Assembly: GCF_058153355.1 (NCBI RefSeq)
Contig: NZ_CM177019.1
Strand: one strand, 5' to 3'
Length of the DNA stretch: 64,000 nt
In this document: in pieces, positions 9,764-59,602 of the stretch
How positions within the stretch are numbered: the stretch's first letter is position 1
Layout: each line of letters begins with the position of its first letter
Translations under genes and position numbers: made by a program
The notes under the pieces: generated by a model
Told to the model about the DNA's origin: nothing
Databases searched by the model: none
The model's input: only the letters and a program-made list of their open reading frames with translations

Positions 9764-10921
9764 TTATTTAAATAAGGGTTTAAGACCGCTCGGGGGTTGC
9801 TTCACCGATGACCAACCTCCCTTACCTAAGTTATAACGCAGCCATTCACCTTGTTGGGCGTGCTCTTTCCCAATTCCAGTCGCTTGTTGAGTGTAAAGCT
9901 GCCCGTCTGTTGATATAAACGTGTTAGTTAATCCCCAACTACCACCTGCTTCAAGTGAGTCGGTGAGATCCTCTGGCTTGAGATTAATCAACTCCCCTTC
10001 GCCCAGGGCGTTGGTTGTTACTTTATAAATTTGGTTCTTATATAAACCGGTATTCCGAACAAACAGATAAAAATATTCCGGATCAACTCCCGCCAGCGTT
10101 TCATAAACACAATCACTACCCGCTGGCGTTGCTTCTTGTTTGAGCCAGGACACAGTCTTCAAACCAATATTAAATGACGCACAACTGTGACTAATATCCT
10201 CCAACTTATAGTCATGCTCACCGCTTTTATCGCGATAAACCAACCGTTCGCCAGGCATCCAACGTTTAATCTGAAAAGTTTTGCGATCGGCGGGCAGTGG
10301 CTTGCCATTAACGATCACCTGCGAATTTGTCAGCACAACAAATTGCAGGGCGGAATCATGCCGCACGATTTGAAATCCATCGGCATGACCCAACCAGCGC
10401 CCTTTATGCCAGAGGCCATTTTTATCACGCAGTAAATTCCAGATGTCCGTCTCTTCCAGCGTTGACATATCCACCTGCTTATCACCGCTATTATCATCGG
10501 TACGCTGGCCGTCAAAATAGATACTGCGTTTATCGGCAGCGAAAGCGCCGAATGCCTGAAAACTGGCAGCGTCGACTTTAGGTTTACCGGGGGGATTTTT
10601 CAGGACTTTGCCTGCCCAAATAACAAAGCGTCCATCGGTGAGCCAGGAATGCTGGCAATCCCCCTTATCATCGCAATCGAACTTATCGGGATTAAAATCG
10701 GACAGTAACCGGCAATCTTGCTTATTAGCTAAATTGGCAATGCGCCAGAGGCGGGAAAAATTAACGTCTGGTAATTCGGAGAGGATCTCATCTTCTTTTC
10801 CCTTCTGTTCGGCAACGTAAACCGTGCCTTTATCATGCTGGCGGTAATAAAAATCCGCGCCCCAGGAAGGTAAAATGGAGAGAGGTAATGCGGCGATTAA
10901 TAACCAACTGCGCTTAACCAT
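9764..10921 (-). CDS. secreted repeat protein A, paralog of previous gene, DKNYY-like repeats
   Basis: Start trimmed to MVKRSWLLIAALPLSILPSWGA signal peptide (386 aa); the 438 aa track ORF would overlap the cycA 3' end and terminator; same conserved core as protein B. Confidence 0.6.
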   Translation of the reverse strand: MVKRSWLLIAALPLSILPSWGADFYYRQHDKGTVYVAEQKGKEDEILSELPDVNFSRLWRIANLANKQDCRLLSDFNPDKFDCDDKGDCQHSWLTDGRFVIWAGKVLKNPPGKPKVDAASFQAFGAFAADKRSIYFDGQRTDDNSGDKQVDMSTLEETDIWNLLRDKNGLWHKGRWLGHADGFQIVRHDSALQFVVLTNSQVIVNGKPLPADRKTFQIKRWMPGERLVYRDKSGEHDYKLEDISHSCASFNIGLKTVSWLKQEATPAGSDCVYETLAGVDPEYFYLFVRNTGLYKNQIYKVTTNALGEGELINLKPEDLTDSLEAGGSWGLTNTFISTDGQLYTQQATGIGKEHAQQGEWLRYNLGKGGWSSVKQPPSGLKPLFK

Positions 10922-11013
10922 AGTGAACTCTGCAACGAGTGGCAAAGATCCACGGTAAGCTCGCGCCTGAGGGCTGTCTATGATGGTAGATTTTTTTAGG
11001 AATATATAAAGAC

Positions 11014-11035
11014 AAAGGCACCCGCAGGTGCCTTT
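11014..11035 (-). terminator. cycA rho-independent terminator
   Basis: aaaggcacc / ggtgccttt stem with 4-nt loop, T-run on the minus strand immediately after. Confidence 0.55.
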
Positions 11036-11054
11036 CAGAGTTATAAACGCGGCA

Positions 11055-12458
11055 TTACTTCGCCATGCGTTTTTTACCAATAAACAACCAGCCCAACCCC
11101 AGCGCGATAAACCACAGCGGGGTAACTATCAGCGCCTGGCGAGTGTCATCTTCCAGTGTCAGCAGCACGACCACGAACACAAAGAACGCCATACATACCC
11201 AGCACATCAGCTTGCCGAGCGGCATCTTGTAGATAGACTTCTCATGCAGGTGCGGACGCTGTTTGCGATACACCAGGTATGAGCAAAGGATAATCGTCCA
11301 GACGAACATAAACAGAATCGCGGAAACAGTCGTGATCATCGTGAACGCGCCAATTACACTTGGATTCACATACAACATCACCACGCCGCCAAGCAGACAG
11401 ATACAAGAGAAGGTCAGCCCTTTCGCGGGTACGGCGCGCTTAGAAAGTTTAGCGAACGCTTTCGGCGCAACACCTTCCTGGGCCAGACCAAACAGCATAC
11501 GGCTGGTAGAGAAGACGCCGCTGTTAGCGGAAGACGCCGCAGAGGTCAGCACCACAAAGTTGATTACGCTGGCAGCCGCAGGCAAACCCACCAACACAAA
11601 CAATTCAACAAACGGGCTTTTCTCCGGGACTACTGAACTCCACGGCGTCACGGACATAATCACAATCAGCGCGAAGACGTAGAACATAATGATACGGATC
11701 GGAATGGAGTTAATCGCACGTGGCAGTGATTTCTCCGGATCTTTCGTTTCCGCAGCGGTTGTACCGACCAGCTCAATCCCCACGAAAGCGAAAACCGCTA
11801 TCTGGAATCCGGCAAAGAAGCCACTTAAACCTTTCGGGAACCAGCCGCCGTCATTCCACAAATGCGCGAATGACGCTTCCACACCGGTCGGTGACTGAAA
11901 GTGCATCGCCACCATGACCAGGCCGACGACAATCAGTGACACGATGGCGACAATTTTGATCATCGCAAACCAGAACTCCATCTCACCGAACATTTTCACG
12001 GTGGCGAGGTTAAGCGTCAGCAGCAGCACTATCACCGCCAGCGAGGCGACCCAGTCGGAGAGATCGGGGAACCAGAACTGAGCATAGGCAGTGATGGCCA
12101 CCACGTCCGCCATACCGGTAACCACCCAGCAGAACCAGTAGGTCCAGCCAGTGAAATATCCCGCCCATGGCCCCAGTAAATCGGAAGCGAAGTCACTAAA
12201 AGATTTGTATTCCAGATTCGAAAGCAGCAATTCCCCCATTGCCCGCATCACGAAAAAGAGCATAAAACCGATGATCATATAAACGAAGATGATCGACGGT
12301 CCGGCAAGGCTGATTGTTTTACCGGACCCCATAAACAACCCCGTACCAATGGCCCCACCAATGGCAATAAGCTGAATATGTCGGTTTGTGAGATTGCGCC
12401 GTAGCGACTGTTCAGCCGGAGCCTGATCATCGGCAACGACTTTTACCTGATCTACCAT
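11055..12458 (-). CDS. cycA: D-serine/D-alanine/glycine APC-family permease
   Basis: 467 aa polytopic amino-acid permease with typical N-terminal motif (HIQLIAIGGAIGTGLFMGSG). Confidence 0.92.
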   Translation of the reverse strand: MVDQVKVVADDQAPAEQSLRRNLTNRHIQLIAIGGAIGTGLFMGSGKTISLAGPSIIFVYMIIGFMLFFVMRAMGELLLSNLEYKSFSDFASDLLGPWAGYFTGWTYWFCWVVTGMADVVAITAYAQFWFPDLSDWVASLAVIVLLLTLNLATVKMFGEMEFWFAMIKIVAIVSLIVVGLVMVAMHFQSPTGVEASFAHLWNDGGWFPKGLSGFFAGFQIAVFAFVGIELVGTTAAETKDPEKSLPRAINSIPIRIIMFYVFALIVIMSVTPWSSVVPEKSPFVELFVLVGLPAAASVINFVVLTSAASSANSGVFSTSRMLFGLAQEGVAPKAFAKLSKRAVPAKGLTFSCICLLGGVVMLYVNPSVIGAFTMITTVSAILFMFVWTIILCSYLVYRKQRPHLHEKSIYKMPLGKLMCWVCMAFFVFVVVLLTLEDDTRQALIVTPLWFIALGLGWLFIGKKRMAK

Positions 12459-14243: not shown

Positions 14244-14874
14244 ATGAAGGGTCAACCAGAAGCCAGCTAAGGATCGTCTCTTTGATGACCTTACGCCTGG
14301 CTTCCAGTGCCTGCGGTGAAACCATACTGATGTGATAAACCAGGCCAAGCGTATGTTGGTTGATCAAATAATATCCTCCAAGAGCAGCAATATTAATATT
14401 CACCTGCAACGGGTCGATATCTGGCTTAAAAATATTGCGCCGTTTGCCTTCAGCTAATAATGACTCCATTAACTGTAAGTGTGCGTGGTTAATTTCTAAA
14501 AGGCGCTGTGATTTTGCATAATGCACCCCTTTACTCTGGTTTTCACTATGCACAATTTTTAAAAACCAGGGGTTAGCAATGTAATAATCCCAGGTGAAAT
14601 CGATAATTTTCTCAATGGCTTTTTGTGGCGGAAGACCTGAGAAATCAAGGGATTTTTCTTTTTGCCGAATATCATTCCAGGTATATTCCAGCACTTCGAT
14701 AAATAAATTTTCTTTATTACCAAAGTGATGATAAACCGTCTGTTTACTGCACTCCGCGGCCTTGACGATATTATCGACTCTGGCCCCTTCGTAACCATAT
14801 TCGGCAAATTCATTAACCGCACATAACAACAGCTTTTCCTTCAGGCTTTGTACGTTGCTGGTATCAAGATACAT
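14227..14874 (-). CDS. TetR-family transcriptional regulator, intact, at the K-12 ytfA position
   Basis: Start taken at MYLDTSNVQ (215 aa); TetR N-terminal HTH ([32 protein letters not shown]); divergent from the downstream operon; 3' end overlaps ytfB by 17 nt. Confidence 0.8.
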
Positions 14875-15085
14875 TCCGCTTCCCCACGTCTTCTTCGTGA
14901 TGACTATCTTAACCCGATTTGTTAGAAGCTCCACTAAAATGGCTAAAAACTCGCAATTTCATCGGGTTATCAAATGCTCTGTGATCATTATCGCATATCA
15001 ACCAACTAGATGGTTGATCTTTCTTGCCACACATTGCAAGCTAATCGTCACTTAAGGAAATAATATTCAAAAAGAGGGTTATTGT

Positions 15086-15877
15086 ATGAAGTCAACACGT
15101 CCTGTTGCTGTCATCACTGGAGCCGCACGTGGTATTGGAAAGGGCTGTGCACTGGAACTTGCGCGTGGCGGATTTAATCTGCTGATTAATGATCGTCCGG
15201 ATGCCGACAGCGTAGAAAAATTACATGCCACACAACAAGAATGTCTGGCGGAAGGCGTGGAAGTCATTTGCTTCCCTGCCGATGTCGGCGATCTCTCCTT
15301 GCATGAAGAGATGCTCGACGCGGCGCAAAACCAGTGGGGGCGTCTGGACTGCCTGCTCAATAACGCCGGGATTTCAGTGAAAAAACGCGGTGACCTCCTC
15401 GACCTCGAACCAGACAGCTTCGACCAAAACATTGCCATTAACACCCGTGCGCCGTTCTTCCTTGCTCAGGCATTCAGTAAGCGATTACTGGCACAGCCGA
15501 AACCGGAAGCAGAACTGCCGCACCGCTCGATTATTTTTGTCAGTTCCATAAACGCCATCATGCTGGCGATGAATCGCGGCGAATATACCATTGCCAAAAC
15601 TGCCGTCTCCGCCGCAGCTCGCCTGTTTGCCGCTCGCCTTTGCAATGAACAAATTGGCGTTTATGAAGTGCGCCCTGGCCTAATCAAAACCGATATGACC
15701 ATTCCGGCAACGGCTTATTACGACGAACTGATTGCTAAGGGGTTAGTGCCGTGGGGACGTTGGGGTTATCCGGCTGATATTGCCTCAACGGTCCGCGCGA
15801 TGGCGGAAGGCAAACTGATTTACACCTGTGGTCAGGCGGTCGCCATCGACGGCGGCTTAAGTATGCCGCGCTTCTGA
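15086..15877 (+). CDS. short-chain dehydrogenase/reductase (SDR)
   Basis: 263 aa; TGAARGIG cofactor motif, NNAG, catalytic YxxxK (YTIAK); AGAGGG RBS. Confidence 0.85.
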   Translation: MKSTRPVAVITGAARGIGKGCALELARGGFNLLINDRPDADSVEKLHATQQECLAEGVEVICFPADVGDLSLHEEMLDAAQNQWGRLDCLLNNAGISVKKRGDLLDLEPDSFDQNIAINTRAPFFLAQAFSKRLLAQPKPEAELPHRSIIFVSSINAIMLAMNRGEYTIAKTAVSAAARLFAARLCNEQIGVYEVRPGLIKTDMTIPATAYYDELIAKGLVPWGRWGYPADIASTVRAMAEGKLIYTCGQAVAIDGGLSMPRF

Positions 15878-15886
15878 GGCTGAATC

Positions 15887-16729
15887 ATGAGAGATCTGTT
15901 ACAACGCCCGGATTTATTCAGTATCAATACTGCGACACTGGGCTATAAAACACCGCTACCTGCCATTATTGATGCCTGCGCCGCACGCGGTATTGGCGCG
16001 ATTGCCCCCTGGCGCAGGGAGTTACAGGGTGAAGATCTCCAACAAATCGCCCGCCAGCTTGCTGCCAGTAACATGAGCGTTTCCGGTTTGTGCCGTAGCA
16101 CCTATTACACCGCGCCGACGCTGACGGAACGCAAACTGGCGATTGATGATAACCGCCGGGCGCTGGACGACGCCGCTGTACTGAACGCCGCCTGTTATAT
16201 GCAGGTGGTTGGCGGTCTGCCAATGGGAACAAAAGATCTGTACGAAGCGCGGGAACAGGTGAAACAAGGGATTCGCCAGTTGCTGCCACATTCGAAAGAT
16301 GTCGGCGTACCAATTGCGCTGGAGCCGCTACACCCGATGACCGCCGCCGATCGCTCTTGCCTGTGCACGTTACGTCAGGCGCTGGACTGGTGTGATGAAC
16401 TCGATCCCGATGGGGAGTTTGGCCTCGGCGTGGCGGTGGATGTTTATCACGTCTGGTGGGACCCGGATCTCGCCAGTCAGATCCTGCGTGCCGGAAAGCG
16501 CATCCTCGCGTTTCATGTTTCCGACTGGCTGGTGCCAACCACCGATTTAGTCAATGACCGGGGAATGCCGGGAGATGGCGTAATCAATATTCCGTCTATT
16601 CGTCGCCAGGTAGAAAATGCCGGATTTAACGGTGCTATTGAACTGGAAATATTCTCACCGTACTGGTGGCAAAAAGATATTAACAGCACACTGGATATTA
16701 GCGTCGATCGCATCGCGCATTATTGCTAA
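15887..16729 (+). CDS. sugar phosphate isomerase/epimerase-like TIM-barrel protein
   Basis: 280 aa; overall resemblance to xylose-isomerase-like TIM-barrel enzymes (IALEPLHP, AFHVSD); 9-nt gap to upstream gene. Confidence 0.6.
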   Translation: MRDLLQRPDLFSINTATLGYKTPLPAIIDACAARGIGAIAPWRRELQGEDLQQIARQLAASNMSVSGLCRSTYYTAPTLTERKLAIDDNRRALDDAAVLNAACYMQVVGGLPMGTKDLYEAREQVKQGIRQLLPHSKDVGVPIALEPLHPMTAADRSCLCTLRQALDWCDELDPDGEFGLGVAVDVYHVWWDPDLASQILRAGKRILAFHVSDWLVPTTDLVNDRGMPGDGVINIPSIRRQVENAGFNGAIELEIFSPYWWQKDINSTLDISVDRIAHYC

Positions 16730-16732
16730 GGA

Positions 16733-17515
16733 ATGATCATGAGTGACCAACCCGTTCTGTTCAGCAGAGCGGCGGCTTCCTGCCGCCTGACATTGAACCG
16801 TGAAGATAAATGTCATGCTATTAATGAAGAAATGATCGAATCTCTCGACCATTATTTAAATGAAATTGAAAACGACACCACATTACGATTAGTCGAATTA
16901 ACGGCAACCGGCGATAAATTCTTTTGTGCAGGCGGCGATATTAAATCGTGGTCAGCCTATTCGCCATTAGATATGGGCAGAAAATGGATTAAACGCGGCA
17001 ATGACGTTTTTAATCGCCTGCGCAACTTACCCCAATTAACCGTTGCGAATCTCAACGGTCATACCATCGGCGGCGGTATTGAACTTGCCTTGTGCTGTGA
17101 TATTCGTATTGCCCGCCCCGGCGCGAAATTCTCTAACCCGGAAGTGATGCTCGGCATGGTACCTGGCTGGATGGGCATTGAACGCGTGCTTAATCAGGTC
17201 GGTCCGGTGGTCGGTCGCCAGATGCTGATGCTGGGTAAACGCCTGACGGCGCAGGAAGCTCAGGCGGCGAATTTAATTGATGAAGTGGTAGAAAAAGAAC
17301 AGGTGGAAAGCTGGATGGCGAATCAGTTAGCGCAACTGGAAAAATGTGGTCCGGTAGCGCTGGCACATATTAAGCAACTGATTCTGGCGCTGGAAAATAA
17401 ACACGCCGATTACCCGCACCAGTTACTGGCTGGATTAATGTCCGCCACTCAGGATTGCCAGCAGGCGACGCGCGCATTTGCCGAAAAAGCCAGCGTGAGC
17501 TTCCATAATCAATAA
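16733..17515 (+). CDS. enoyl-CoA hydratase/isomerase (crotonase family)
   Basis: 260 aa; FFCAGGDIKSW and GHTIGGGIELALCCDIRIA crotonase-fold motifs. Confidence 0.8.
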   Translation: MIMSDQPVLFSRAAASCRLTLNREDKCHAINEEMIESLDHYLNEIENDTTLRLVELTATGDKFFCAGGDIKSWSAYSPLDMGRKWIKRGNDVFNRLRNLPQLTVANLNGHTIGGGIELALCCDIRIARPGAKFSNPEVMLGMVPGWMGIERVLNQVGPVVGRQMLMLGKRLTAQEAQAANLIDEVVEKEQVESWMANQLAQLEKCGPVALAHIKQLILALENKHADYPHQLLAGLMSATQDCQQATRAFAEKASVSFHNQ

Positions 17516-17524
17516 GGAAATTGT

Positions 17525-19066
17525 ATGCGTAAGATAACAACCGCCGAGACACTGGCGGCGCAAATTCAGGACGGCGCAACCATTGCCATTAGCGGTAATG
17601 GCGGTGGCATGGTGGAAGCGGACCATATTCTGGCTGCTATTGAAGCGCGTTTCCTGCAAACCGGACACCCGCGCGATCTGACATTAATCCACTCACTGGG
17701 CATTGGCGATCGCGACTGCAAAGGCACTAACCGCTTCGCTCATGCAGATATGCTCAAACGCATCATTGCCGGACATTTTACCTGGTCGCCCAAGATGCAG
17801 GATCTGGTGAAAAACAATGCTATTGAAGCCTACTGCTTCCCTGGTGGCGTAATTCAGGCACTGCTGCGGGAGATCGGTGCCGGACGTCCAGGGCTTTTTA
17901 CCCACGTTGGGCTGGGATCGTTTGTTGATCCGCGCAACGGCGGCGGTAAGTCGAACGCCAGCACCACTGAGGATCTGGTAGAACTGATTGAAATCGACGG
18001 TGAAACCAAACTTCGTTATCGCCCTTTCAAAGTGGACTACGCGATTTTGCGTGGCACTTATGCCGATCCGCGTGGCAACGTCAGCCTCGAAGAAGAGGCG
18101 ATTGATATGGATAGCTATTCCATGGCGCTGGCAGCACACAACAGCGGCGGCAAAGTGTTCGTACAGGTGCGCGATGTGCTGGAAGCTGGTGCCATTGAAC
18201 CACGCCGGGTCAAATTACCGGGCATTCTGGTTGATGGCATCGTTGAACACCGCGAACAACCGCAAACCTATCTTGGCGGTTACGACCTGACCATCAGCGG
18301 TCAGCATCGCCGTCTAAGTTCTAACGACGCTATTGAACTGGTTAGTCATCCGGTGCGCCGCCTGATTGCCCGTCGGGCAGCACGCGAACTGGTGGCTGGC
18401 GCTTCAACCAACTTTGGCTTTGGTATTCCGGGCGGTATTCCAGGAGTAGCGCTGCGCGAAGGCGTGCCTTATCAAAGTTTATGGCTGAGCGTAGAACAGG
18501 GCGTACATAACGGCATGATGCTGGATGATGCTCTGTTCGGCTGCGCCCGTAACGCCGATGCCATTATTCCATCACTCGATCAATTCGAATTCTACAGTGG
18601 CGGAGGGATCGATATCACCTTCCTCGGCATGGGAGAGATGGATCAGTACGGTAACGTCAACGTCTCCCATCTCAATGGCAATCTCATTGGCCCCGGCGGA
18701 TTTCTCGAAATTGCGCAAAACGCCCGTAAAGTGGTGTTCTGCGGCACGTTCGACGCCAAAGGTAGCAAGATTGATGTAACACCAGATGGCTTGCATATTG
18801 CCCAGTCAGGTCAAATCCCTAAACTGGTTACCCAGGTGGAAAAAATCACTTTTAGCGCCGCCTACGCACAGCAAAGCGGTCAGGAAGTGTTGTATATCAC
18901 TGAACGTGCAATATTCCAGTTAACGGCAGAAGGCGTTGAATTAATTGAAATCGCACCAGGTGTGGAGATTGAGCGCGACATTCTGCCATATATGGCTTTC
19001 CGTCCAATTATCAATCAGCCACGCCTGATGGAAAGTAGCCTGTTTACGCCGATGGAGGATGCATGA
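17525..19066 (+). CDS. family I CoA-transferase, fused A/B subunits (YdiF-like)
   Basis: 513 aa; two-domain CoA-transferase architecture; stop overlaps next start (ATGA). Confidence 0.7.
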   Translation: MRKITTAETLAAQIQDGATIAISGNGGGMVEADHILAAIEARFLQTGHPRDLTLIHSLGIGDRDCKGTNRFAHADMLKRIIAGHFTWSPKMQDLVKNNAIEAYCFPGGVIQALLREIGAGRPGLFTHVGLGSFVDPRNGGGKSNASTTEDLVELIEIDGETKLRYRPFKVDYAILRGTYADPRGNVSLEEEAIDMDSYSMALAAHNSGGKVFVQVRDVLEAGAIEPRRVKLPGILVDGIVEHREQPQTYLGGYDLTISGQHRRLSSNDAIELVSHPVRRLIARRAARELVAGASTNFGFGIPGGIPGVALREGVPYQSLWLSVEQGVHNGMMLDDALFGCARNADAIIPSLDQFEFYSGGGIDITFLGMGEMDQYGNVNVSHLNGNLIGPGGFLEIAQNARKVVFCGTFDAKGSKIDVTPDGLHIAQSGQIPKLVTQVEKITFSAAYAQQSGQEVLYITERAIFQLTAEGVELIEIAPGVEIERDILPYMAFRPIINQPRLMESSLFTPMEDA

Positions 19067-21135
19067 GTCAGCTTGATGACACCCTCCTTGATGCGCTGAC
19101 GCACGTCACTTTCCCGAAGGGTTTTGTGTCAGCAGAGCCAGCGTCAATTGTCACGGTTGAAGATGTCGATTACCCGATCTGGCAAGTTGATGCGCTAGTC
19201 GTTGGTAGCGGCGCGGCAGGGCTGCGCGCAGCGGTTGAACTTAAGCGCCGCCAGCAAAATGTGCTGATCGCCTCCGCCGGGTTATATATGGGGACATCGG
19301 CATGTTCTGGTTCCGATAAACAGACGCTGTTTACCGCCGCTACCGCGGGCAACGGCGATAACTTCGCCAAACTGGCGGAAGCACTGGCGAGCGGTGGGGC
19401 GATGGATCACGACACCGCTTATGTCGAAGCGGTAGGTTCTCTGCACACTCTTGGCGGGTTGCAATATCTTGGTCTGGAATTACCGGAAGATCGCTATGGC
19501 GCAATTCTTCGTTATCAAACCGACCATGACGAAGCCGGGCGAGCAACCTCGTGTGGGCCGCGTACTTCTCGCCTAATGGTGAAAGTATTGCTGGAGGAAG
19601 TGCAGCGTCTTGCCATACCACTACTGACCAGTGCAACGGTGATTAAGCTCCTGCATCAGCACGGAGAGAATGGCGAAGATCGCGTTGCGGGGGCTATTCT
19701 CGCAACCGGTTCCCGCGCCTATAACCCCTGGGGGCTGGCTATTGTGACGGCGCCCAATGTGGTACTGGCAACGGGCGGACCGGGCGAGCTTTATCGCGAC
19801 AGTGTTTATCCACATAAATGCTTCGGCTCGCTGGGACTGGCACTGGAAGAAGGTTTGACGCTAACCAATCTGACCGAAAGCCAGTTTGGTATAGGCACGC
19901 CGCGCAGCACGTTTCCGTGGAATTTGTCCGGCACCTATGTACAGGTGATCCCATATATCTATTCCGTGGATGCCGGGGGCAACGAGTATAACTTCCTCGC
20001 AGATTACTATCGCACCACCCAGGAGCTGGCTTCAAACATCTTCCGTAAAGGCTATCAGTGGCCGTTTCACGCCACACGAGTGATGGATTTTGGCTCCAGC
20101 TTGTTAGATATGGCAGTAGCGCAAGAGCAGCAATCAGGACGTCAGGTATTTATGGATTTCAATCGCAATCCTGAACCTGTGCCGGGTGACCTGCCGTTCT
20201 CATTAGATCGACTGGACGACGACGTTCGCGCGTATCTGGAAAATAACGACGCTCTGGCACCATCGCCCATCGAACGACTGCAACGAATGAATCCGCTGTC
20301 TATCTCGCTGTATAAGATGCACGGTTACGATCTCACCACGCAGCCATTGCAGTTTGCCATGAATAATCAGCATATAAATGGCGGCATTGAAGTGGATATC
20401 TGGGGGCAAACCTCCCTGCCCGGATGTTTCGCCGTGGGGGAAGTTGCTGGCACACACGGCGTCACTCGCCCTGGTGGTGCGGCATTGAATGCCGGGCAGG
20501 TTTTTGCTGTTCGTCTGGCACGTTTTATTGGTTGCACGCAAAAACGTAATATTGATGGAGATATAGCACAGCTGGTAGCTCCGGCACTGGCTTCTATAAG
20601 AGAGATCATTACTCAGGCGCACGATAACGGGACCGGGATGCCGTTGTCGGTTGTGAGGGAAAAAATTCAGGCACGAATGTCTGACTACGCGGGATTTATT
20701 TGCCATGCCGATAAAGTCCGACGCGCCACTCGTGATGCCCTGCTATTGAACGAATTTGTGCAACGGCATGGATTGGCAATCAAACATGTGGGTGAAGTTG
20801 CCGAGCTATTTATGTGGCGGCATATGGCGCTGACTTCTGCCGCGGTATTAACACAATTAACGCATTATATTGATGCTGGTGGTGGTAGCCGTGGGGCGCG
20901 TATGGTTATTGATCCACAAGGCAAATGCCTACCACAAACTCGTCGCGGCGCAAAAGAAGAATGGCGTTTTCGCTCTGAACTCGCTGAAGACAAAAATCAC
21001 AAATTAACAATTCAATATTCGCAAGGTTCTTTTATTACCGAAGTAAAGTCTTTACGTATGCAACCGTGTATTAACGGTATTTACTTTGAAAAAAACTGGC
21101 CAGACTTTTTAAAGGGAGACATTTACACACAGTAA
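19063..21135 (+). CDS. FAD-dependent oxidoreductase, fumarate reductase/succinate dehydrogenase flavoprotein-like
   Basis: 690 aa; N-terminal dinucleotide fold VVGSGAAGLRAAVEL; second FAD-contact motif GCFAVGEVAGTHG; long C-terminal extension. Confidence 0.7.
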   Translation: MSQLDDTLLDALTHVTFPKGFVSAEPASIVTVEDVDYPIWQVDALVVGSGAAGLRAAVELKRRQQNVLIASAGLYMGTSACSGSDKQTLFTAATAGNGDNFAKLAEALASGGAMDHDTAYVEAVGSLHTLGGLQYLGLELPEDRYGAILRYQTDHDEAGRATSCGPRTSRLMVKVLLEEVQRLAIPLLTSATVIKLLHQHGENGEDRVAGAILATGSRAYNPWGLAIVTAPNVVLATGGPGELYRDSVYPHKCFGSLGLALEEGLTLTNLTESQFGIGTPRSTFPWNLSGTYVQVIPYIYSVDAGGNEYNFLADYYRTTQELASNIFRKGYQWPFHATRVMDFGSSLLDMAVAQEQQSGRQVFMDFNRNPEPVPGDLPFSLDRLDDDVRAYLENNDALAPSPIERLQRMNPLSISLYKMHGYDLTTQPLQFAMNNQHINGGIEVDIWGQTSLPGCFAVGEVAGTHGVTRPGGAALNAGQVFAVRLARFIGCTQKRNIDGDIAQLVAPALASIREIITQAHDNGTGMPLSVVREKIQARMSDYAGFICHADKVRRATRDALLLNEFVQRHGLAIKHVGEVAELFMWRHMALTSAAVLTQLTHYIDAGGGSRGARMVIDPQGKCLPQTRRGAKEEWRFRSELAEDKNHKLTIQYSQGSFITEVKSLRMQPCINGIYFEKNWPDFLKGDIYTQ

Positions 21136-21227
21136 TTTTCAATATTTACTCTGTACCTGATTTTTATTGCCTATTACATGGAAATACCAACAACCAGGGT
21201 TTATTAATATAATTAAAAGGTTTAAAA

Positions 21228-22505
21228 ATGAATAAAATAAAGAATTATCGATGGCATATGATTGCCCTCGTATGCTTTATCACTGTAATCAATTATCTGG
21301 ACAGAACGGCGTTAGGTATTGCGGCTCCAACGATTATGGAGACAACCGGAATAACCAAAGAACAATATTCATGGATTGTCAGTGCATTCCAGTTGGCCTA
21401 TACATTGGGGCAACCGGTAATGGGCTTCTTTATTGATACCGTGGGTCTGAAGTTAAGTTTTGCGATATGTGCCGCAATCTGGGGCCTGGCGACAATGGGG
21501 CATGCCTTGACAGGAACATGGTCAGGTCTGGCATTTATGCGCGCCCTGATGGGTTTCAGCGAAGCATCGGCAATTCCTGCGGGTGTAAAAACCGCATCAA
21601 CATGGTTCCCGGCAAAAGAGCGTGGCGTGGCGACAGGTGTTTTCAATATGGGCACCTCACTCGGCGCGATGCTTGCTCCACCGTTGATTGCCTGGTGCAT
21701 TATGTTTCATAGCTGGCAATTTGCGTTTATTGTCTCAGGTAGCCTTGCTTTACTCGCGGCTTTATTTTGGTTCTTTTGTTATAAAGATCCAAAAGATGCT
21801 AAACGCCTTTCTGATGAAGAGCGCCACTATATTGAGTCTGGGCAAGAACAGCATCTTAAAACAGATAAGAAAGAAAAAACGTCAATCAAGCATATCCTCA
21901 GCCAACGTAATTTCTGGGGGATTGGCATCGCGCGTTTTCTCGCTGACCCGGCATGGGGAACCATTAACTTCTGGGTACCGATTTTCTTCGTCGAAACGCT
22001 GCATTTTAGCCTGAAAGAAATTGCCATGTTCGTCTGGCTGCCTTTCCTGCTGGGCGATCTCGGCTGTTTAGCCAGTGGTTTTGTCGCGAAGTTCTTCCAC
22101 GATCGCGGCGTGAGTTTAATTAACTCACGAAGAATTACCTTCACTATTGCAGCCGTCATTATGATGACGATTGGTCTGGTGAGTATTGTCGAAAATCCCT
22201 ACATCGCCGTATTACTGATTAGCATTGGCGCATTCTCGCATCAATGTCTTTCTACTGTAGCAGCAACTCTGGGCGGTGACCTATTCAAAAAAGACGAAGT
22301 AGCTACCGCAGTGGGTATGGCAGGAGCCTGTGCGTGGAGCGGTCAGTTGATTTTCAACCTGTTCATCGGGGCATTCGTTCACATTATCGGCTTCGCGCCG
22401 TTCTTTATTGCCCTGGCTTTCTTTGACATTATTGGTGCTATTGCGTTGTGGACGCTTATCAAAGTTAAAGATGAAGAACCACAAGTACAGTTAGCTACCC
22501 ACTAA
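21228..22505 (+). CDS. MFS transporter, anion:cation symporter type (hexuronate/galactonate-like)
   Basis: 425 aa, about 12 TM; N-terminal motifs (NYLDRTALGIAAP) typical of ExuT/DgoT/GudP-like acid-sugar permeases. Confidence 0.7.
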   Translation: MNKIKNYRWHMIALVCFITVINYLDRTALGIAAPTIMETTGITKEQYSWIVSAFQLAYTLGQPVMGFFIDTVGLKLSFAICAAIWGLATMGHALTGTWSGLAFMRALMGFSEASAIPAGVKTASTWFPAKERGVATGVFNMGTSLGAMLAPPLIAWCIMFHSWQFAFIVSGSLALLAALFWFFCYKDPKDAKRLSDEERHYIESGQEQHLKTDKKEKTSIKHILSQRNFWGIGIARFLADPAWGTINFWVPIFFVETLHFSLKEIAMFVWLPFLLGDLGCLASGFVAKFFHDRGVSLINSRRITFTIAAVIMMTIGLVSIVENPYIAVLLISIGAFSHQCLSTVAATLGGDLFKKDEVATAVGMAGACAWSGQLIFNLFIGAFVHIIGFAPFFIALAFFDIIGAIALWTLIKVKDEEPQVQLATH

Positions 22506-22774
22506 TTATTTTAAATAAAAACGCTATAATTGAGGTTATGGCGTTTTTAAAGAAGCTTGAGTTATCGAACCTCGCTTACCAACGCGTTGTCAGTCATCTC
22601 CCCCCTCCCTGGTGCATCGTTATATCCGTGATGAGCGATTTTTGATATTAATATCTTTCACCATCCGCTATTTTCACCACTTCAGAAAACAAACTTATTT
22701 TTATTAATATCAATTCTTTTTCTTTGAACATTCAACTGCGATATTTGTAAAAATATTAAACAGGCAACAATAAA

Positions 22775-36631: not shown

Positions 36632-37795
36632 TTAGCCAGCAATATAATGCGGAACGAAACGTGAGGTGTCTTTGGTGATCAGCGTGTTATCTTCACGGAT
36701 CCCCATTCCGCACGCTTCATCATCAACAATCCAGCTACCAATGAGTGTGTAGCTATCGCCAAATCGTGGCAGAGGTTGAAATGCCTGGTAGATCATCGGT
36801 TCATCGGCATAATCACCCTCAGCGTGGTCAACGACGTTATTCTGACCATCGAAAATGGTGACGTTACCGCCCTCGCGTGAGTAGATCGGTTTACGCACAT
36901 AGCTTTCGCCAGCGGCAATCTGCGGTTTTTCGCCATCAAACCAGGATGCAAGTAGGTTAGGATGACCAGGAAAGAAGCGCCAAAGCAGCGGCATTAACCC
37001 TTTGTTGCTCAAAATACTTTTCCATAACGGCTCCACCCATTGCTCGCGGCGCTTGCGCAGCAGCGGACCGTTATCGTCACGCATCATCCATTCCAGCGGA
37101 TACAGCTTAAATGCACGCTGGATGACATTATCATCAAGATCGGTCAGTACACCGCCGACGCCCAAACCGAGATCTTCAATGTAGATAAACCGTGACTCCT
37201 GCCCAGCCTGCTGAGCGCAGTCCTGCAAGTACAGCACAGTACTCCTGTCTTCGTCGGTATCCTGACAACAGCAGAAATAAAACGGTTCCCGACTGTAAAG
37301 CTCGCTAAAACGCGAAATCAGGCGTTCCTGAATGGCATTGTACTGATCGGCATCACGCGGAATACTGCCGCTACGCCGCGCATCTTCCAGCCACAGCCAC
37401 TGGAAATAAGCCGACTCATACAATGAGGTCGGCGTATCGGCGTTGTACTCCAGCAGCTTCACCGGCGCATTACCACACCAGGCAAAATCCATCCGACCAT
37501 ACAGCGAAGGATCGCGTGCGCGCCAGCTTTCAGCGATCACATCCCAGTACAGCGGTGGGATCGCCAGTTGCGTCAGGATCTCTTCGTCTTGAACCGCACG
37601 ATCCACCACCTCAAGGCACATCTGATGCAATTCCGCAGTTGGTTTTTCGATCTGCTCTTCAATCTGGCGCAGGGTAAAGCGGTAAGCCCGACTCTCATCC
37701 CAATAGATTTCATTGTCGATGATATGAAAGTCGAAACCGTTGTCAGCGGCGATCTGGTCCAGATCCCGCCGTACAGGAACGTTGTGTCTCAGCAT
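36632..37795 (-). CDS. yjfC: glutathionylspermidine synthase-like ATP-grasp protein
   Basis: 387 aa. Confidence 0.88.
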   Translation of the reverse strand: MLRHNVPVRRDLDQIAADNGFDFHIIDNEIYWDESRAYRFTLRQIEEQIEKPTAELHQMCLEVVDRAVQDEEILTQLAIPPLYWDVIAESWRARDPSLYGRMDFAWCGNAPVKLLEYNADTPTSLYESAYFQWLWLEDARRSGSIPRDADQYNAIQERLISRFSELYSREPFYFCCCQDTDEDRSTVLYLQDCAQQAGQESRFIYIEDLGLGVGGVLTDLDDNVIQRAFKLYPLEWMMRDDNGPLLRKRREQWVEPLWKSILSNKGLMPLLWRFFPGHPNLLASWFDGEKPQIAAGESYVRKPIYSREGGNVTIFDGQNNVVDHAEGDYADEPMIYQAFQPLPRFGDSYTLIGSWIVDDEACGMGIREDNTLITKDTSRFVPHYIAG

Positions 37796-37797
37796 GA

Positions 37798-38436
37798 TTA
37801 GCCTCCCCAGTGCCCACGGGCGCTGGAAGAACGACCATAGCCGCCGCGAGAAACAGTTGACGCTTTTCTGGTGGTAAAGCCGCCCGAGGAGTAAGACTCT
37901 TTTTTGCCAGAACCGGAGCGCCAGGAGTAATCACCGGAAGTATTGCGCCAGACGGGGCGGGAAGCAAATGAGGATCCACCGCTGTTATAAACGAACGGCT
38001 CATCGCGATCTTTACGGATAACCCGGCTTAATAAAAATCCAGAAATGACCGGGATCCAACTCTGTTCAACATTGTCGTAGTAGCAATTTTCGTACTTAGA
38101 CTGACAATTCTGCTGAGTCATATTCTTCGGAACATCGGCATAAAATGCCGCTTTGGCATTGTTCCAGCCATGAGCACAGATATCTGAATTATTACCGTCA
38201 TCAATACAATCCTGCACTGTCGAGTAAAACGTTCCGTCACCGTCGTTATCGACATCACCACTATCGCCACAACCTTTCAATACAAAAAAAGCTGCACCGC
38301 CCATTAGCGCCAACGTTAAGTATTTTTGTGCGTAGCGATTGCGTCGCGGCTCAAAAGGATTATTAGGTCTTCCAATGCGACTGATCGCTCCGTGACCAAT
38401 TTTACTGTTATTTCTTGATTTGCGTTTTCTGGCCAT
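37798..38436 (-). CDS. yjfM: uncharacterized protein YjfM
   Basis: 212 aa; one TM near N-terminus, Gly/Ser-rich C-terminus. Confidence 0.85.
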   Translation of the reverse strand: MARKRKSRNNSKIGHGAISRIGRPNNPFEPRRNRYAQKYLTLALMGGAAFFVLKGCGDSGDVDNDGDGTFYSTVQDCIDDGNNSDICAHGWNNAKAAFYADVPKNMTQQNCQSKYENCYYDNVEQSWIPVISGFLLSRVIRKDRDEPFVYNSGGSSFASRPVWRNTSGDYSWRSGSGKKESYSSGGFTTRKASTVSRGGYGRSSSARGHWGG

Positions 38437-38445
38437 GATCGTCCA

Positions 38446-38844
38446 TTACCATGTCATACAAGCTGCGTTAAAAATACCGCCAGCCAGCGCGGCGGTTCCC
38501 ATAAACATTCCTGCTGCGGTATTGTGATTAATAATTTTTTCGCTTAATGCTGGCATATAAAGTCTGACGCCAGCAAAAACGAGTAACTGAATCACCAGTG
38601 CGATCCCGCCCCAGGCAAAATAATCCGGAATACTCACCGCATTGATTGCCGCACTAGATAATGGGATCACGTAACCCAACAATGTACCACTGAACGCCAG
38701 TGCCGCCGCGGTATTATTGTTTTTAATTAACTGCCATTCGTTGTGCGGTGTAATTTTGGAGTAGATAAACAGAAAAATAATCACCATAGCCACGCCAATA
38801 AAAAAATAGGCGCTAAAGGCAAGAAGTGAATCCAGTATATGCAT
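38446..38844 (-). CDS. yjfL: small membrane protein YjfL
   Basis: 132 aa, 4 TM. Confidence 0.85.
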   Translation of the reverse strand: MHILDSLLAFSAYFFIGVAMVIIFLFIYSKITPHNEWQLIKNNNTAAALAFSGTLLGYVIPLSSAAINAVSIPDYFAWGGIALVIQLLVFAGVRLYMPALSEKIINHNTAAGMFMGTAALAGGIFNAACMTW

Positions 38845-38861: not shown

Positions 38862-39521
38862 TTAACCAATAATATGAAGTGATGTCAGTGGGATATCAAC
38901 ACCCAGTGCGCGCGAAAATAACCACTCCGGCTCGCCGAGATCGTTAAAAGATTCCTCACCATTTAACAGCAAATATTCACAGGTATCTTCGGTCACCTGC
39001 CGTTCATAGCCCATGGTAAAATTATGCACTTCCCATTTGGCGTGGTTTTGATTTTCAACTTTTTCCAGCATATAGACGGGTTCGATATTCCCCGGTTCTT
39101 CGCTGTTAAAAAATCGCTGCCAGCGTTTTTCCTGCCAGTTTAAAGTCATTGCCCCCATCGCTTTGGCGTTGATCGCTTCGCGCCAGTGGCTCTCTTTGCT
39201 GATACCGTAGCTCTCTTCATAGACAAAGAGTTTTATATCATCAATGTCATCAATATCTTCGCCGCCGGTGGTATTGATTTGCAGAAATTCATCGCCCGAA
39301 GTGTAGTAGCGGAAAATCTGACTACCGCCGCCCAGATCGATGTGGCTGACAGCGGCTACCGTAAATTCTTCACCCGGCAGCGCAATCAGCAATTCATCTT
39401 CCAGCAAACAAAACGCTAACGTGTCGAGCGTAAAGCCGCTATTGAGATGAAGTCCCAGCGGGCCACGTGCGATTACAGGTTTATCATCCTTACCAAACAG
39501 ATGCTTGAAAAAACTTGTCAT
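38862..39521 (-). CDS. yjfK: uncharacterized protein YjfK
   Basis: 219 aa; start ATG overlaps upstream channel-gene stop (ATGA). Confidence 0.85.
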   Translation of the reverse strand: MTSFFKHLFGKDDKPVIARGPLGLHLNSGFTLDTLAFCLLEDELLIALPGEEFTVAAVSHIDLGGGSQIFRYYTSGDEFLQINTTGGEDIDDIDDIKLFVYEESYGISKESHWREAINAKAMGAMTLNWQEKRWQRFFNSEEPGNIEPVYMLEKVENQNHAKWEVHNFTMGYERQVTEDTCEYLLLNGEESFNDLGEPEWLFSRALGVDIPLTSLHIIG

Positions 39522-40588
39522 ATGCTTCCCTCAATGTCCTGCCATGCCACTTCTTCAGCCAAAATACGGTTATTGCCAATAAGATGCAGCCACATACCGC
39601 CTTTAACTTCCGTTGCAATGACTGGATTCAGTTCCATTCCCCTACCATTTTTACAGCTGCTTATTCCCAGGACGGTGGCATCATGATGAAGTTTCATATA
39701 ATGCATCAATGCGCCATAACGCATTGAGGTAACCCGTTCAGGAATCGGTAAAACAAACCCCGTATCCCCCAGCATTGGATTCATAATCGATGCCACTGAT
39801 TGAGATGAACCGGGATCTTGTATTGAACGGGAAAGTTGTTCTGCTGAAATATTTCGCACTATTTCAATACGTTGACAATGAACCTCTAATAAACGAGCGT
39901 AGCGTTCATCTTCCAGATAAGCGACGATATGGCATCTTTCAGGAATAAAATCCGCCAGGGATAGTGCGGTCGTGAACGTCTGCTCATCAGTTTGCGAAAA
40001 GATGATGACACTTTGGCAATTTGCCAGTCCCATGCGGGTATGTTCATGCGGATCATTAAAATTACTAATACGAATGAAATCGACCCAATTATTTCCAGGC
40101 ATCGGATGTTGAATATCATCCCGCTCACACAAAAGTACCCGGCCAAATGCTCTTCGGGCATCAAACAACAATAATGAAATCATCTTTTCAGTCTGATGCC
40201 CGCGCCATCCAATGACCAGCATATGGTTGCGCAAATTGCTGTAGTCGCCCATTCCCGTCATTCCTTTCGCCAATATGTCTTGCACTAATGCAATGACTTT
40301 TCCCATTAAAGCGCCAAATAAACCAACACTCACAGGAATTTGCCAGAGCGCTGTGAACAGACGTCCCCCCACCGTTTGGGGTGTGATATCACCAAACCCC
40401 AGCGTTGATCCCACAACCGAGCAGTAATAAATAAAATTACTCAGTTGACCTACCAACGCCTCTTCATGCAACGCAGTTAACACCAGATAACAAAACAGAT
40501 ACTGTCCTGTAAATAATCCAGTCAATGCCGGCCAGGTAAGCCTGGAAAGGTGACGTCGGCAGGTTTTAATGATCCAGGAGAAGAACAT
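39518..40588 (-). CDS. 2-TM P-loop potassium-channel-like protein with C-terminal RCK-like domain
   Basis: 356 aa; TM1 (LTGLFTGQYLFCYLVLTAL), pore helix plus filter-like TLGFGD, TM2 (LFTALWQIPVSVGLFGALMG), then Rossmann-like HMLVIGWRGH...; start overlaps yjfJ stop (TAATG), stop overlaps yjfK start (ATGA). Confidence 0.75.
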   Translation of the reverse strand: MFFSWIIKTCRRHLSRLTWPALTGLFTGQYLFCYLVLTALHEEALVGQLSNFIYYCSVVGSTLGFGDITPQTVGGRLFTALWQIPVSVGLFGALMGKVIALVQDILAKGMTGMGDYSNLRNHMLVIGWRGHQTEKMISLLLFDARRAFGRVLLCERDDIQHPMPGNNWVDFIRISNFNDPHEHTRMGLANCQSVIIFSQTDEQTFTTALSLADFIPERCHIVAYLEDERYARLLEVHCQRIEIVRNISAEQLSRSIQDPGSSQSVASIMNPMLGDTGFVLPIPERVTSMRYGALMHYMKLHHDATVLGISSCKNGRGMELNPVIATEVKGGMWLHLIGNNRILAEEVAWQDIEGSI

Positions 40589-41286
40589 TACTCGCCCTGT
40601 TGGCGTTGCAGTCTTGCTAATACATCCTGGGCGCTACTTTTGTTGCTACCGCCAATTCCGGCTTCCGCCAGTTTTTCATCAAGATCGCGACCATCTGCCA
40701 CTTTTTCCAGCTGTGCGGCAGCATCCAGGCGAGCTTGACGTTCGGCCTGACGCGTTTGCAGACGCTTTAAGGATTCTGCCGCTGTCGAAACGCTGGAAGA
40801 TGCGCCAACAGTAGAGGTCGTTACGGCCTGTTGTGCACGCTGCATGGCTTCAGTAGCTTTAACGACTTCCATTTGTTGCTCAAATTGAGCGATACTCTGT
40901 GCTGTCGCTGTAACCGCTTTTTCCACACCATCGCGAGAGACTTCCAGATTCGACAACACTTGCTCTTCAGCGGTAATGACATTCTCAAGACGGGCGATTT
41001 CTTCAGCAACTTCGTTAATCAACGACGGATTAACATTCTTGCTTAACGCTTCCAGCGCGCGAGCTTCCAGACTGGCTTTACGCTCACGTAAATCTTTCAG
41101 TTTATCGTTGCTCAATTTCACTCTTGCCAGTAGATCGACACGTGATTTACCGGCCTTATCCAGTTCTGCTTTGGCATCGCGTATATGCTGTTCAAGCATT
41201 CTAACGCCCTGTGCTTCTTCAATGGATTCTTCCGCTTGCGAGATCACCGATTTACCCAGCGTAAATAAAGTTTTTAAAATTCCCAT
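40588..41286 (-). CDS. yjfJ: PspA/IM30-family protein
   Basis: 232 aa, coiled-coil. Confidence 0.88.
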   Translation of the reverse strand: MGILKTLFTLGKSVISQAEESIEEAQGVRMLEQHIRDAKAELDKAGKSRVDLLARVKLSNDKLKDLRERKASLEARALEALSKNVNPSLINEVAEEIARLENVITAEEQVLSNLEVSRDGVEKAVTATAQSIAQFEQQMEVVKATEAMQRAQQAVTTSTVGASSSVSTAAESLKRLQTRQAERQARLDAAAQLEKVADGRDLDEKLAEAGIGGSNKSSAQDVLARLQRQQGE

Positions 41287-41304: not shown

Positions 41305-41706
41305 TTAGTGTGAATATTCTTCTGTAATTTCAGCAAGATCCAAAGCGTTATCTACCAGCGTGGTTATTTCCAGCAGGATATCTTCAAGAGAAGATTTAAG
41401 CGATAACGCCCCGAAAACAATGTAATACTCTTCATGTTGCACGCTGGAGATCCCTACCGATGACAACGGCATCATCTTCTGATTTCTTAATAAGAAGGTA
41501 TTAAATTCATCTGGATTGCTGATACTACTTACCGGACAAATAAAGGTTTCGATAATCATTTGGCGGGAAGTAAATAGAATATTGATTTGCAAATCGCCAT
41601 AATCATTCATTTTAATAATTAATGCGTTCTCGCCATTTGTTACATCAATATTTTGTTCAGGTACAGTTTGCAGCGCCGTCGCCAGCGCCAACGGATTCCA
41701 TGTCAT
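41305..41706 (-). CDS. yjfI: uncharacterized protein YjfI
   Basis: 133 aa, first gene of the operon. Confidence 0.85.
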   Translation of the reverse strand: MTWNPLALATALQTVPEQNIDVTNGENALIIKMNDYGDLQINILFTSRQMIIETFICPVSSISNPDEFNTFLLRNQKMMPLSSVGISSVQHEEYYIVFGALSLKSSLEDILLEITTLVDNALDLAEITEEYSH

Positions 41707-41832
41707 ATATTATTCCATATAAATTAAGTTTAAATATTAATAAAATGAATATTTGTAGTACGTAATTATCTTACCAGCTATAGACAAAAAAAAACCATCC
41801 AAATCTGGATGGCTTTTCATAATTCCGAGAAA

Positions 41833-59172: not shown

Positions 59173-59258
<86 letters not shown>

Positions 59259-59293
59259 TTGGGTGGTCTGTGCTTTGCAGCACTTTCAAATTT

Positions 59294-59369
<76 letters not shown>

Positions 59370-59526
59370 TTAATCTTCGTCTTTCGAACCGCTACTGCCT
59401 TGGCTGCCTTCACTCACCTTAGTCACTTACTTTTGTAAGCTCCCAAGGATTCGTTCAGTTGCCGCCTTGTCGCAATTCGAAATACTGCGATTGGGTGGTC
59501 TGTGCTTTGCAGCACTTTTCAAATTT

Positions 59527-59602
<76 letters not shown>

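Follow-up and report, generated by a model that had tools for sequence, protein, structure and literature searches.

A putative MthK-type potassium channel gene is probably an ancestral member of the yjf operon kept in Escherichia cryptic clade I

How does a gene for a potassium-channel-like protein come to lie inside the yjf operon, joined to both of its neighbors by overlapping codons at a place where Escherichia coli K-12 has only a short spacer, and what might such a channel do there? This question is raised by a stretch of DNA of 64,000 nucleotides (contig NZ_CM177019.1 of RefSeq assembly GCF_058153355.1; hereafter the window), in which an open reading frame (ORF) of 356 amino acids (aa) lies between yjfJ, encoding a protein of the PspA/IM30 family, and yjfK. 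A first-pass annotation made from the sequence alone had described this ORF as a channel gene embedded in the operon and had proposed that it couples K+ flux to a membrane-stress response. Our overall reading, to which we give a probability of roughly 0.8, is that the gene encodes an MthK-type K+ channel, that it is an ancestral and translationally coupled member of the yjf operon which Escherichia cryptic clade I has retained, and that it would contribute an accessory ligand-gated K+ flux.

The ORF was found where it had been annotated, at positions 39518-40588 on the minus strand, and its start codon is ATG in both the ORF list and the raw sequence. The start shares base 40588 with the stop codon of yjfJ (GAGTA-ATG in the sense direction), which gives a TAATG junction with an overlap of 1 nt, and the TGA stop shares bases 39518-39521 with the start of yjfK, which gives an ATGA junction with an overlap of 4 nt; both overlaps had been reported and both were seen in the raw sequence. 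The other gaps in the operon are 18, 17, 9, and 2 nt and are identical in the window and in K-12, and in K-12 yjfJ and yjfK are adjacent without a channel gene, as the first-pass annotation had stated, and are separated by 50 nt. When the gene was compared with its orthologs from five other genera, the ratio of nonsynonymous to synonymous substitution (dN/dS) was 0.04-0.10, which indicates purifying selection, and the synonymous sites (pS) were saturated between genera; an ORF that arose by chance is therefore excluded. The gene is a real feature, and it had been described accurately.

In a survey of 5426 complete genomes labeled 'E. coli' the channel gene was carried by 18 (0.33%), always between yjfJ and yjfK, and it is annotated, its RefSeq name being 'potassium channel family protein' (WP_000466338.1). 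Over the yjfI-yjfL flanks the 18 carriers were 97.8-99.3% identical to the window and every other genome was at most 94.8% identical, and at the unlinked mutL-hfq segment the same 18 genomes were the closest to the window (99.6-100%). One of them, EC42405, is 98.8% identical to the window over 15 kb. It has been reported that EC42405 and 2013C-4282, two of the carriers, are completely sequenced strains of Escherichia cryptic clade I (Okuno et al. 2023, PMC10100065). The cluster of the channel protein has members from 'EsCd1' strains and carries names of the type 'MULTISPECIES [Escherichia]'. Against K-12, and likewise against SMS-3-5 of phylogroup F, the identity of the window is 94-97% wherever it can be aligned and not at the operon alone. 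Because the 18 carriers are closest at the operon as well as at mutL-hfq, because two of them are published clade I strains, and because the divergence is uniform, the window is assigned to Escherichia cryptic clade I, and the rarity of the channel among 'E. coli' genomes would reflect lineage and not a local insertion. A local recombinational import of the carriers' operon was considered and rejected, since the sliding identity to K-12 and SMS-3-5 is similar across the window. A separate observation was made in E. coli SCPM-O-B-8794, which is a GTDB species representative of its own: its channel is 98% identical to that of the window, but its YjfI is 80% and its YjfJ 93% identical, more diverged than the K-12 proteins (98% and 97%, respectively), and this points to a mosaic or recombinant origin of the operon's 5' end in that lineage.

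The same slot is occupied in other genera. The gene is common in Salmonella, and in Salmonella enterica all eight distinct contexts that were retrieved through an identical YjfL protein carry the channel, and it is found in this place also in Citrobacter youngae, C. sedlakii, Citrobacter sp. On2M, Enterobacter sp. ENT03, two Atlantibacter species, Buttiauxella massiliensis, and 'Serratia' microhaemolytica. A scan of contigs with peptide patterns had missed S. enterica and the representatives of other Escherichia species, and such misses are not evidence of absence; the absence from S. enterica that could have been read from that scan was rejected when the YjfL-anchored look-up found the slot filled. 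The gene order is invariably yjfI-yjfJ-channel-yjfK-yjfL-yjfM-yjfC, and loci long enough to show the flanks have rlmB on the upstream side and aidB on the downstream side. Of 11 enterobacterial loci, 10 keep the TAATG junction upstream of the channel. The overlap of the channel stop with the start of the DUF2491 gene (yjfK) was present in all 12 loci examined, in most of them as ATGA, a distant locus whose channel is only 30% identical included. The channel diverges together with its neighbors: between Salmonella and the window the identities of the channel, YjfJ, and YjfK are 83%, 88%, and 78%, respectively, and between Atlantibacter and the window they are 62-64%, 72-75%, and 52-53%. The best identity of a channel from outside Escherichia is 87%, and this together with the saturated synonymous sites excludes a recent transfer. 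The embedding of the gene, which the first-pass annotation had presented as a novelty, is therefore not borne out, as the slot is the same, and the junctions are the same or nearly so, in Salmonella, Citrobacter, Enterobacter, Atlantibacter, and Buttiauxella, and the evolutionary framing is reversed: what is seen in the window is retention and not insertion.

In E. coli sensu stricto the place of the channel is taken by a spacer of 49-50 nt, which in K-12 lies at 7077-7126 of the locus and holds a perfect 8-bp hairpin, GCCAGCCT-cgctaaa-AGGCTGGC, with a 7-nt loop and no T-run. The simplest history is that the channel was an ancestral member of the yjf operon, that a clean deletion removed it on the stem branch leading to E. 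coli sensu stricto, and that it was kept in clade I; loss is preferred to gain because of the phylogenetic distribution and the co-divergence, not because of a scar. The gene has been inactivated elsewhere as well. In a Salmonella sublineage (GCA_014114705.1, channel at 2257-3327 of its locus; 54 similar places) the codon of G75 has changed from GGA to TGA, a stop just after the selectivity filter, so that the channel gene is here a natural pseudogene while the rest of the operon is intact. In Salmonella the UniRef name of the protein is 'Resembles eukaryotic-type potassium channels n=89 Tax=Salmonella'. The size of the Salmonella cluster at 90% identity, 1960, is inflated by 232-aa PspA/IM30 (YjfJ) sequences and was not used as a count; their presence is presumably an artifact of fused yjfJ-channel calls across the 1-nt overlap, which makes cluster sizes unreliable. 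It was also observed that several E. coli genomes have an IS1 element between yjfJ and yjfK; the spacer region may thus be a recurrent target of IS1, whose insertion could uncouple yjfIJ from yjfKLMC.

The first-pass annotation knew of no description of a channel in this setting, and that was wrong, as the gene and its operon association are already known. In their analysis of PspA neighborhoods Ravi, Anantharaman, Aravind, Gennaro et al. 2024 (mSystems 9:e00847-23, PMC11237479) described a 'third group' which is this type of operon, the channel included, with AMJ95269.1-AMJ95273.1 as an example, and the protein has names in RefSeq and UniRef. The gene set of their CesT/Tir-PspA polyamine/ATP-grasp operon is identical to the one in the window, down to the channel with an intracellular ligand-sensing domain; there is no difference in kind and the window is an instance of it from Escherichia clade I. 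In the same work YjfI is a CesT/Tir-like chaperone, and on the ligand of the channel it is said only that there is 'intracellular ligand sensing'. The paper credits Li et al. 2019 (Biochem J 476:2579) with the linkage of the PspA dyad to polyamine-metabolism genes. What is added here is that clade I has the gene and E. coli sensu stricto lacks it, the preservation of its junctions across genera, and the purifying selection on it.

When the channel protein was searched against Pfam, Ion_trans_2 was recovered at residues 42-103 (E=1.7e-10) and TrkA_N, weakly, at residues 180-235 (E=0.039). The predicted layout is an N-terminal amphipathic helix, a first transmembrane (TM) helix at about residues 19-39, a pore helix at 49-62, a filter T62-L-G-F-G-D67, a second TM helix and linker at 73-110, and an RCK domain at 120-356. 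In an alignment of 20 enterobacterial homologs, 56-87% identical, the segment S61-T-L-G-F-G-D67 is kept with the pattern S-T-[LVIT]-G-F-G-D; invariant or nearly so are the filter, G127-W128 after the first RCK strand, D201-E-Q-T, E226, and E228-R-Y, and a hinge segment 'SAEQL-RS' is also kept. With a profile of the homologs the best match in the PDB was MthK (E=4e-7), the aligned residues 5-234 spanning the pore and the RCK domain. The AlphaFold2 (AF2) model of the monomer had a mean pLDDT (predicted local distance difference test score) of 72.9, with 80-90 in the RCK part, and when this model was submitted to Foldseek the top matches were full-length MthK structures (E about 1e-12); Slo1/BK, GsuK, and RCK-only structures of MthK (2AEF, 4EI2) came next. 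The two TM helices around a pore helix and a TLGFGD filter, as claimed from the letters, are borne out by Ion_trans_2, by the conservation in the homologs, and by the helices of the model, and the RCK-like Rossmann domain by the MthK profile alignment and Foldseek, the Pfam match to TrkA_N being only weak; a Pfam search and a structure prediction, two of the checks that the first-pass annotation had proposed, thus recovered a channel pore and a 2TM-P-loop plus RCK fold.

A match to Kch was considered and rejected, as the score against the Kch equivalog (NCBIfam PRK10537) was 34.4 bits, the cut-off being 425, and the model has only two TM helices; no NCBIfam model was found for the channel protein itself. 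The Kch of E. coli resembles it in having a K+ channel pore and a C-terminal RCK domain, and occurs in the same genus, but it has six TM helices and 417 aa and is encoded at another locus. The database names 'two pore domain' and 'voltage-gated' were set aside as misnomers, since each subunit has a single pore domain and lacks a voltage sensor. Because of the Pfam result, the profile match to MthK, the Foldseek result, and the low Kch score, the protein is, as far as sequence and model tell, an MthK-type 2TM-RCK channel and not Kch. It shares with MthK of Methanothermobacter thermautotrophicus (PDB 1LNQ, 6U5R, 6OLY) a 2TM/P-loop pore with one RCK domain per subunit, a similar length, the GW motif after beta-1, the E-x-E-R-Y motif (E210/E212 of MthK), and the hinge segment 'L-S-R-S-I'. 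It differs from MthK in that the two are only 17-19% identical, in that the filter is TLGFGD and not TVGYGD, and in that the Ca2+ ligand D184 of MthK is replaced by F197.

In the profile alignment the MthK Ca2+ ligands E210 and E212 align with the conserved E226 and E228 of the channel, and the conserved acidic cluster D201/E202, E226, and E228 is placed where the topology of the Rossmann-like lobe has its ligand site. Because two of the three Ca2+ ligands of MthK are conserved, the ligand may plausibly be cationic, whether a divalent metal or a molecule of the polyamine type. In MthK an internal start at M107 supplies a soluble RCK domain and the gating ring is octameric. Codon 113 of the channel is capable of serving as a start in all nine lineages compared, being ATG in seven and TTG in two, with AAAGG 9-10 nt upstream. 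However, when synonymous codons were examined as a control, the enrichment of GGA at G109 (7/9) was nearly equaled at G75 and G96 (6/9 each), so the bias is not specific to that site, and because of this an MthK-like internal start at codon 113, which would yield a soluble RCK domain, is kept only as a weak lead.

An exhaustive profile search gave 178 representative proteins at E<=1e-30, clustered at 50% identity, nearly all of them about 350 aa long and matched over the full length, and the neighborhoods of 10 distant ones were examined. Three of the 10 are in yjf-type clusters. In the locus of the 30%-identical channel mentioned above, DUF2170-PspA is divergent from channel-DUF2491-DUF350-DUF1190-GSP_synth; of the other two, one channel adjoins DUF2170 and one stands in the order channel-DUF350-DUF1190. 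The tightest link of the channel appears to be with the half of the operon that runs from DUF2491 to the ATP-grasp gene. As overlapping start and stop codons are kept across genera, the channel is probably under selection to be expressed together with YjfJ and, on stronger grounds, with YjfK.

By analogy with MthK, the K+-selective pore would be built from four subunits, each contributing two TM helices, a pore helix, and a cytoplasmic RCK domain, and the gating ring of RCK domains would open the pore upon binding of an intracellular ligand. We infer that the ligand-gated K+ flux may serve the PspA-like membrane-stress function, in that it would reset the membrane potential or the turgor of a cell whose stressed inner membrane is being acted on by the PspA-like and polyamine-related proteins. 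The channel would then be an accessory, dispensable, and repeatedly lost part of a membrane-stress and polyamine module and not its core.

Several observations weigh against this reading. When the K-12 yjfJ-yjfK spacer was aligned to the channel gene in search of a deletion scar, no recognizable remnant was found. The filter region of the AF2 model is poor (pLDDT below 50 at residues 59-69), as expected for a monomer, and the channel residue that aligns with D184, the third Ca2+ ligand of MthK, is F197. In the literature no experimental work was found on conduction, selectivity, ligand, or phenotype of the channel. The loss in E. coli sensu stricto and the nonsense allele in Salmonella mean that the operon does not need the channel, and from this repeated loss it follows that the channel is dispensable to the rest of the operon. 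Finally, 7 of the 10 distant family members are in unrelated neighborhoods with no yjf or PspA gene adjoining, and therefore the channel is likely to work autonomously elsewhere; it appears to be an autonomous unit that was recruited into the yjf module by one subfamily.

The last two points agree with a different explanation, that the channel is a functionally independent passenger which is co-transcribed for convenience and serves general K+ homeostasis or as an osmotic channel with no mechanistic link to YjfJ/PspA. It has been reported that the channel-less yjfIJKL of K-12 forms a 'YjfJ iModulon' which is switched on in heat-evolved strains by a promoter mutation 80 bp upstream of yjfI, and the yjf operon has recently been put forward as a candidate for heat tolerance in that strain (PMC12492005); the operon therefore works there without the channel, as a passenger would allow. 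This explanation is unlikely, though to be taken seriously, as it leaves the overlapping start and stop codons kept across genera unaccounted for, and the overlap with DUF2491 persists even in the locus of the 30%-identical channel, whose PspA dyad is transcribed divergently, which implies selection for joint expression at least with YjfK and the downstream genes.

It was also considered that the channel is strictly MthK-like, gated by Ca2+ or another divalent cation, and that it would be opened by cation influx through a damaged membrane, as in the Ca2+-triggered ESCRT-III repair of eukaryotes. The E-x-E-R-Y motif aligned with E210/E212 of MthK is invariant, as is D201-E202 at the N-terminus of the following helix, and the gene adjoins that of an ESCRT-III homolog. 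This analogy is nevertheless doubtful, since the equivalent of D184 is F or Y at position 197, since Ravi et al. went no further than an unspecified intracellular ligand, and since the product of the polyamine-related ATP-grasp enzyme is equally plausible as the ligand. Horizontal acquisition by the clade I lineage with insertion between yjfJ and yjfK, which could be read from the 0.33% of carriers, from the spacer without a remnant, and from yjf flanks that share no more than 94.8% identity with those of any non-carrier, is very improbable in view of an identical slot with the same or nearly the same overlapping junctions in at least six other genera, the lack of a recent donor (best outside identity 87%, synonymous sites saturated), a divergence that tracks that of the neighbors, and a whole 64-kb window, not the operon alone, that is similarly diverged from K-12 and SMS-3-5.

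Within the preferred reading of an ancestral accessory channel, a stronger proposal is that the channel is coupled mechanistically to the YjfJ repair module, its RCK domain sensing leaking divalent cations or a polyamine conjugate made by YjfC and its K+ flux setting the potential or turgor for YjfJ, YjfK, and YjfL; we give this proposal little credence. Were it true, carriers (clade I, Salmonella) and non-carriers (E. coli sensu stricto) would mark a rewiring of the stress response. No new kind of system is revealed here and the practical value is modest; the interest is mainly in the polymorphism as a handle on the yjf operon, one of the last uncharacterized PspA/ESCRT-III systems in enterobacteria. 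The K-12 version would be a derived, channel-less one, while Salmonella and Escherichia clade I keep the seven-gene form, which matters for the design of experiments on YjfJ, and the natural presence/absence polymorphism and the Salmonella nonsense allele are ready-made genetic controls.

The genes of the operon and a hairpin upstream of it are collected in the table. Compared with the genes that RefSeq annotates in EC42405, the ORFs of the window show 98-100% identity, and the Pfam families were confirmed on the Salmonella orthologs; the co-linear set of DUF2170, PspA_IM30, K+ channel, DUF2491, DUF350, DUF1190, and a GSP_synth-like ATP-grasp ligase is present. The hairpin divides rlmB from the yjf operon, and the promoter of the operon must be located roughly at 41707-41788.

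Table. Positions of the channel gene, the other yjf genes, and the upstream hairpin in the window
Feature	Position	Strand	Basis
MthK-like K+ channel gene (putative), 356 aa	39518..40588	-	ORF list, Pfam, AF2/Foldseek, homolog alignment, dN/dS
yjfI (DUF2170), first gene of the operon	41305..41706	-	ORF list, RefSeq annotation of relative
yjfJ (PspA/IM30, ESCRT-III-like), 232 aa; stop TAA overlaps channel ATG by 1 nt	40588..41286	-	ORF list, junction reading
yjfK (DUF2491), 219 aa; ATG overlaps channel stop	38862..39521	-	ORF list, junction reading
yjfL (DUF350, membrane protein with 4 TM helices)	38446..38844	-	ORF list, annotation
yjfM (DUF1190 lipoprotein)	37798..38436	-	ORF list, annotation
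yjfC (ATP-grasp, glutathionylspermidine-synthase-like ligase), last gene of the operon	36632..37795	-	ORF list, annotation
Strong terminator-like hairpin after rlmB, 13 pairs and T-run	41789..41818	-	hairpin reading

The bac (biofilm-associated) cluster of Pseudomonas aeruginosa has a band-7/flotillin protein in place of the channel and the ATP-grasp ligase. YjfI matches the NCBIfam model of the Pseudomonas 'biofilm formation regulator BacA' with 96 bits (E=2.5e-27), under the cut-off of 300, and this match links the yjfI-yjfJ dyad to that cluster. BacA with its PspA-like partner is another CesT/Tir-like-PspA dyad, of group 1 of Ravi et al., from which YjfI is set apart by its score below the cut-off.

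Elsewhere in the window an island of about 8 kb (14629-22607) is absent from K-12 and partly common to SMS-3-5. It codes for a TetR-family regulator, a short-chain dehydrogenase/reductase (3-ketoacyl-ACP-reductase-like, 421 bits), a sugar-phosphate-isomerase/epimerase-like protein, an enoyl-CoA hydratase, a FadX-like CoA transferase, a large flavin adenine dinucleotide-dependent oxidoreductase, and a transporter of the major facilitator superfamily, and it looks like an accessory cluster for the catabolism of organic acids or acyl-CoA compounds. Another segment of about 2.9 kb (8186-11074), also absent from K-12, has two large ORFs on the minus strand, of 497 and 438 aa, for which no NCBIfam model matched at E<=1e-5. 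At 59181-59602 there is a tandem array of tRNA-Gly genes with a spacing unlike that of K-12; in the BLAST comparison it shows up as repeated segments and an additional interval of 120 nt.

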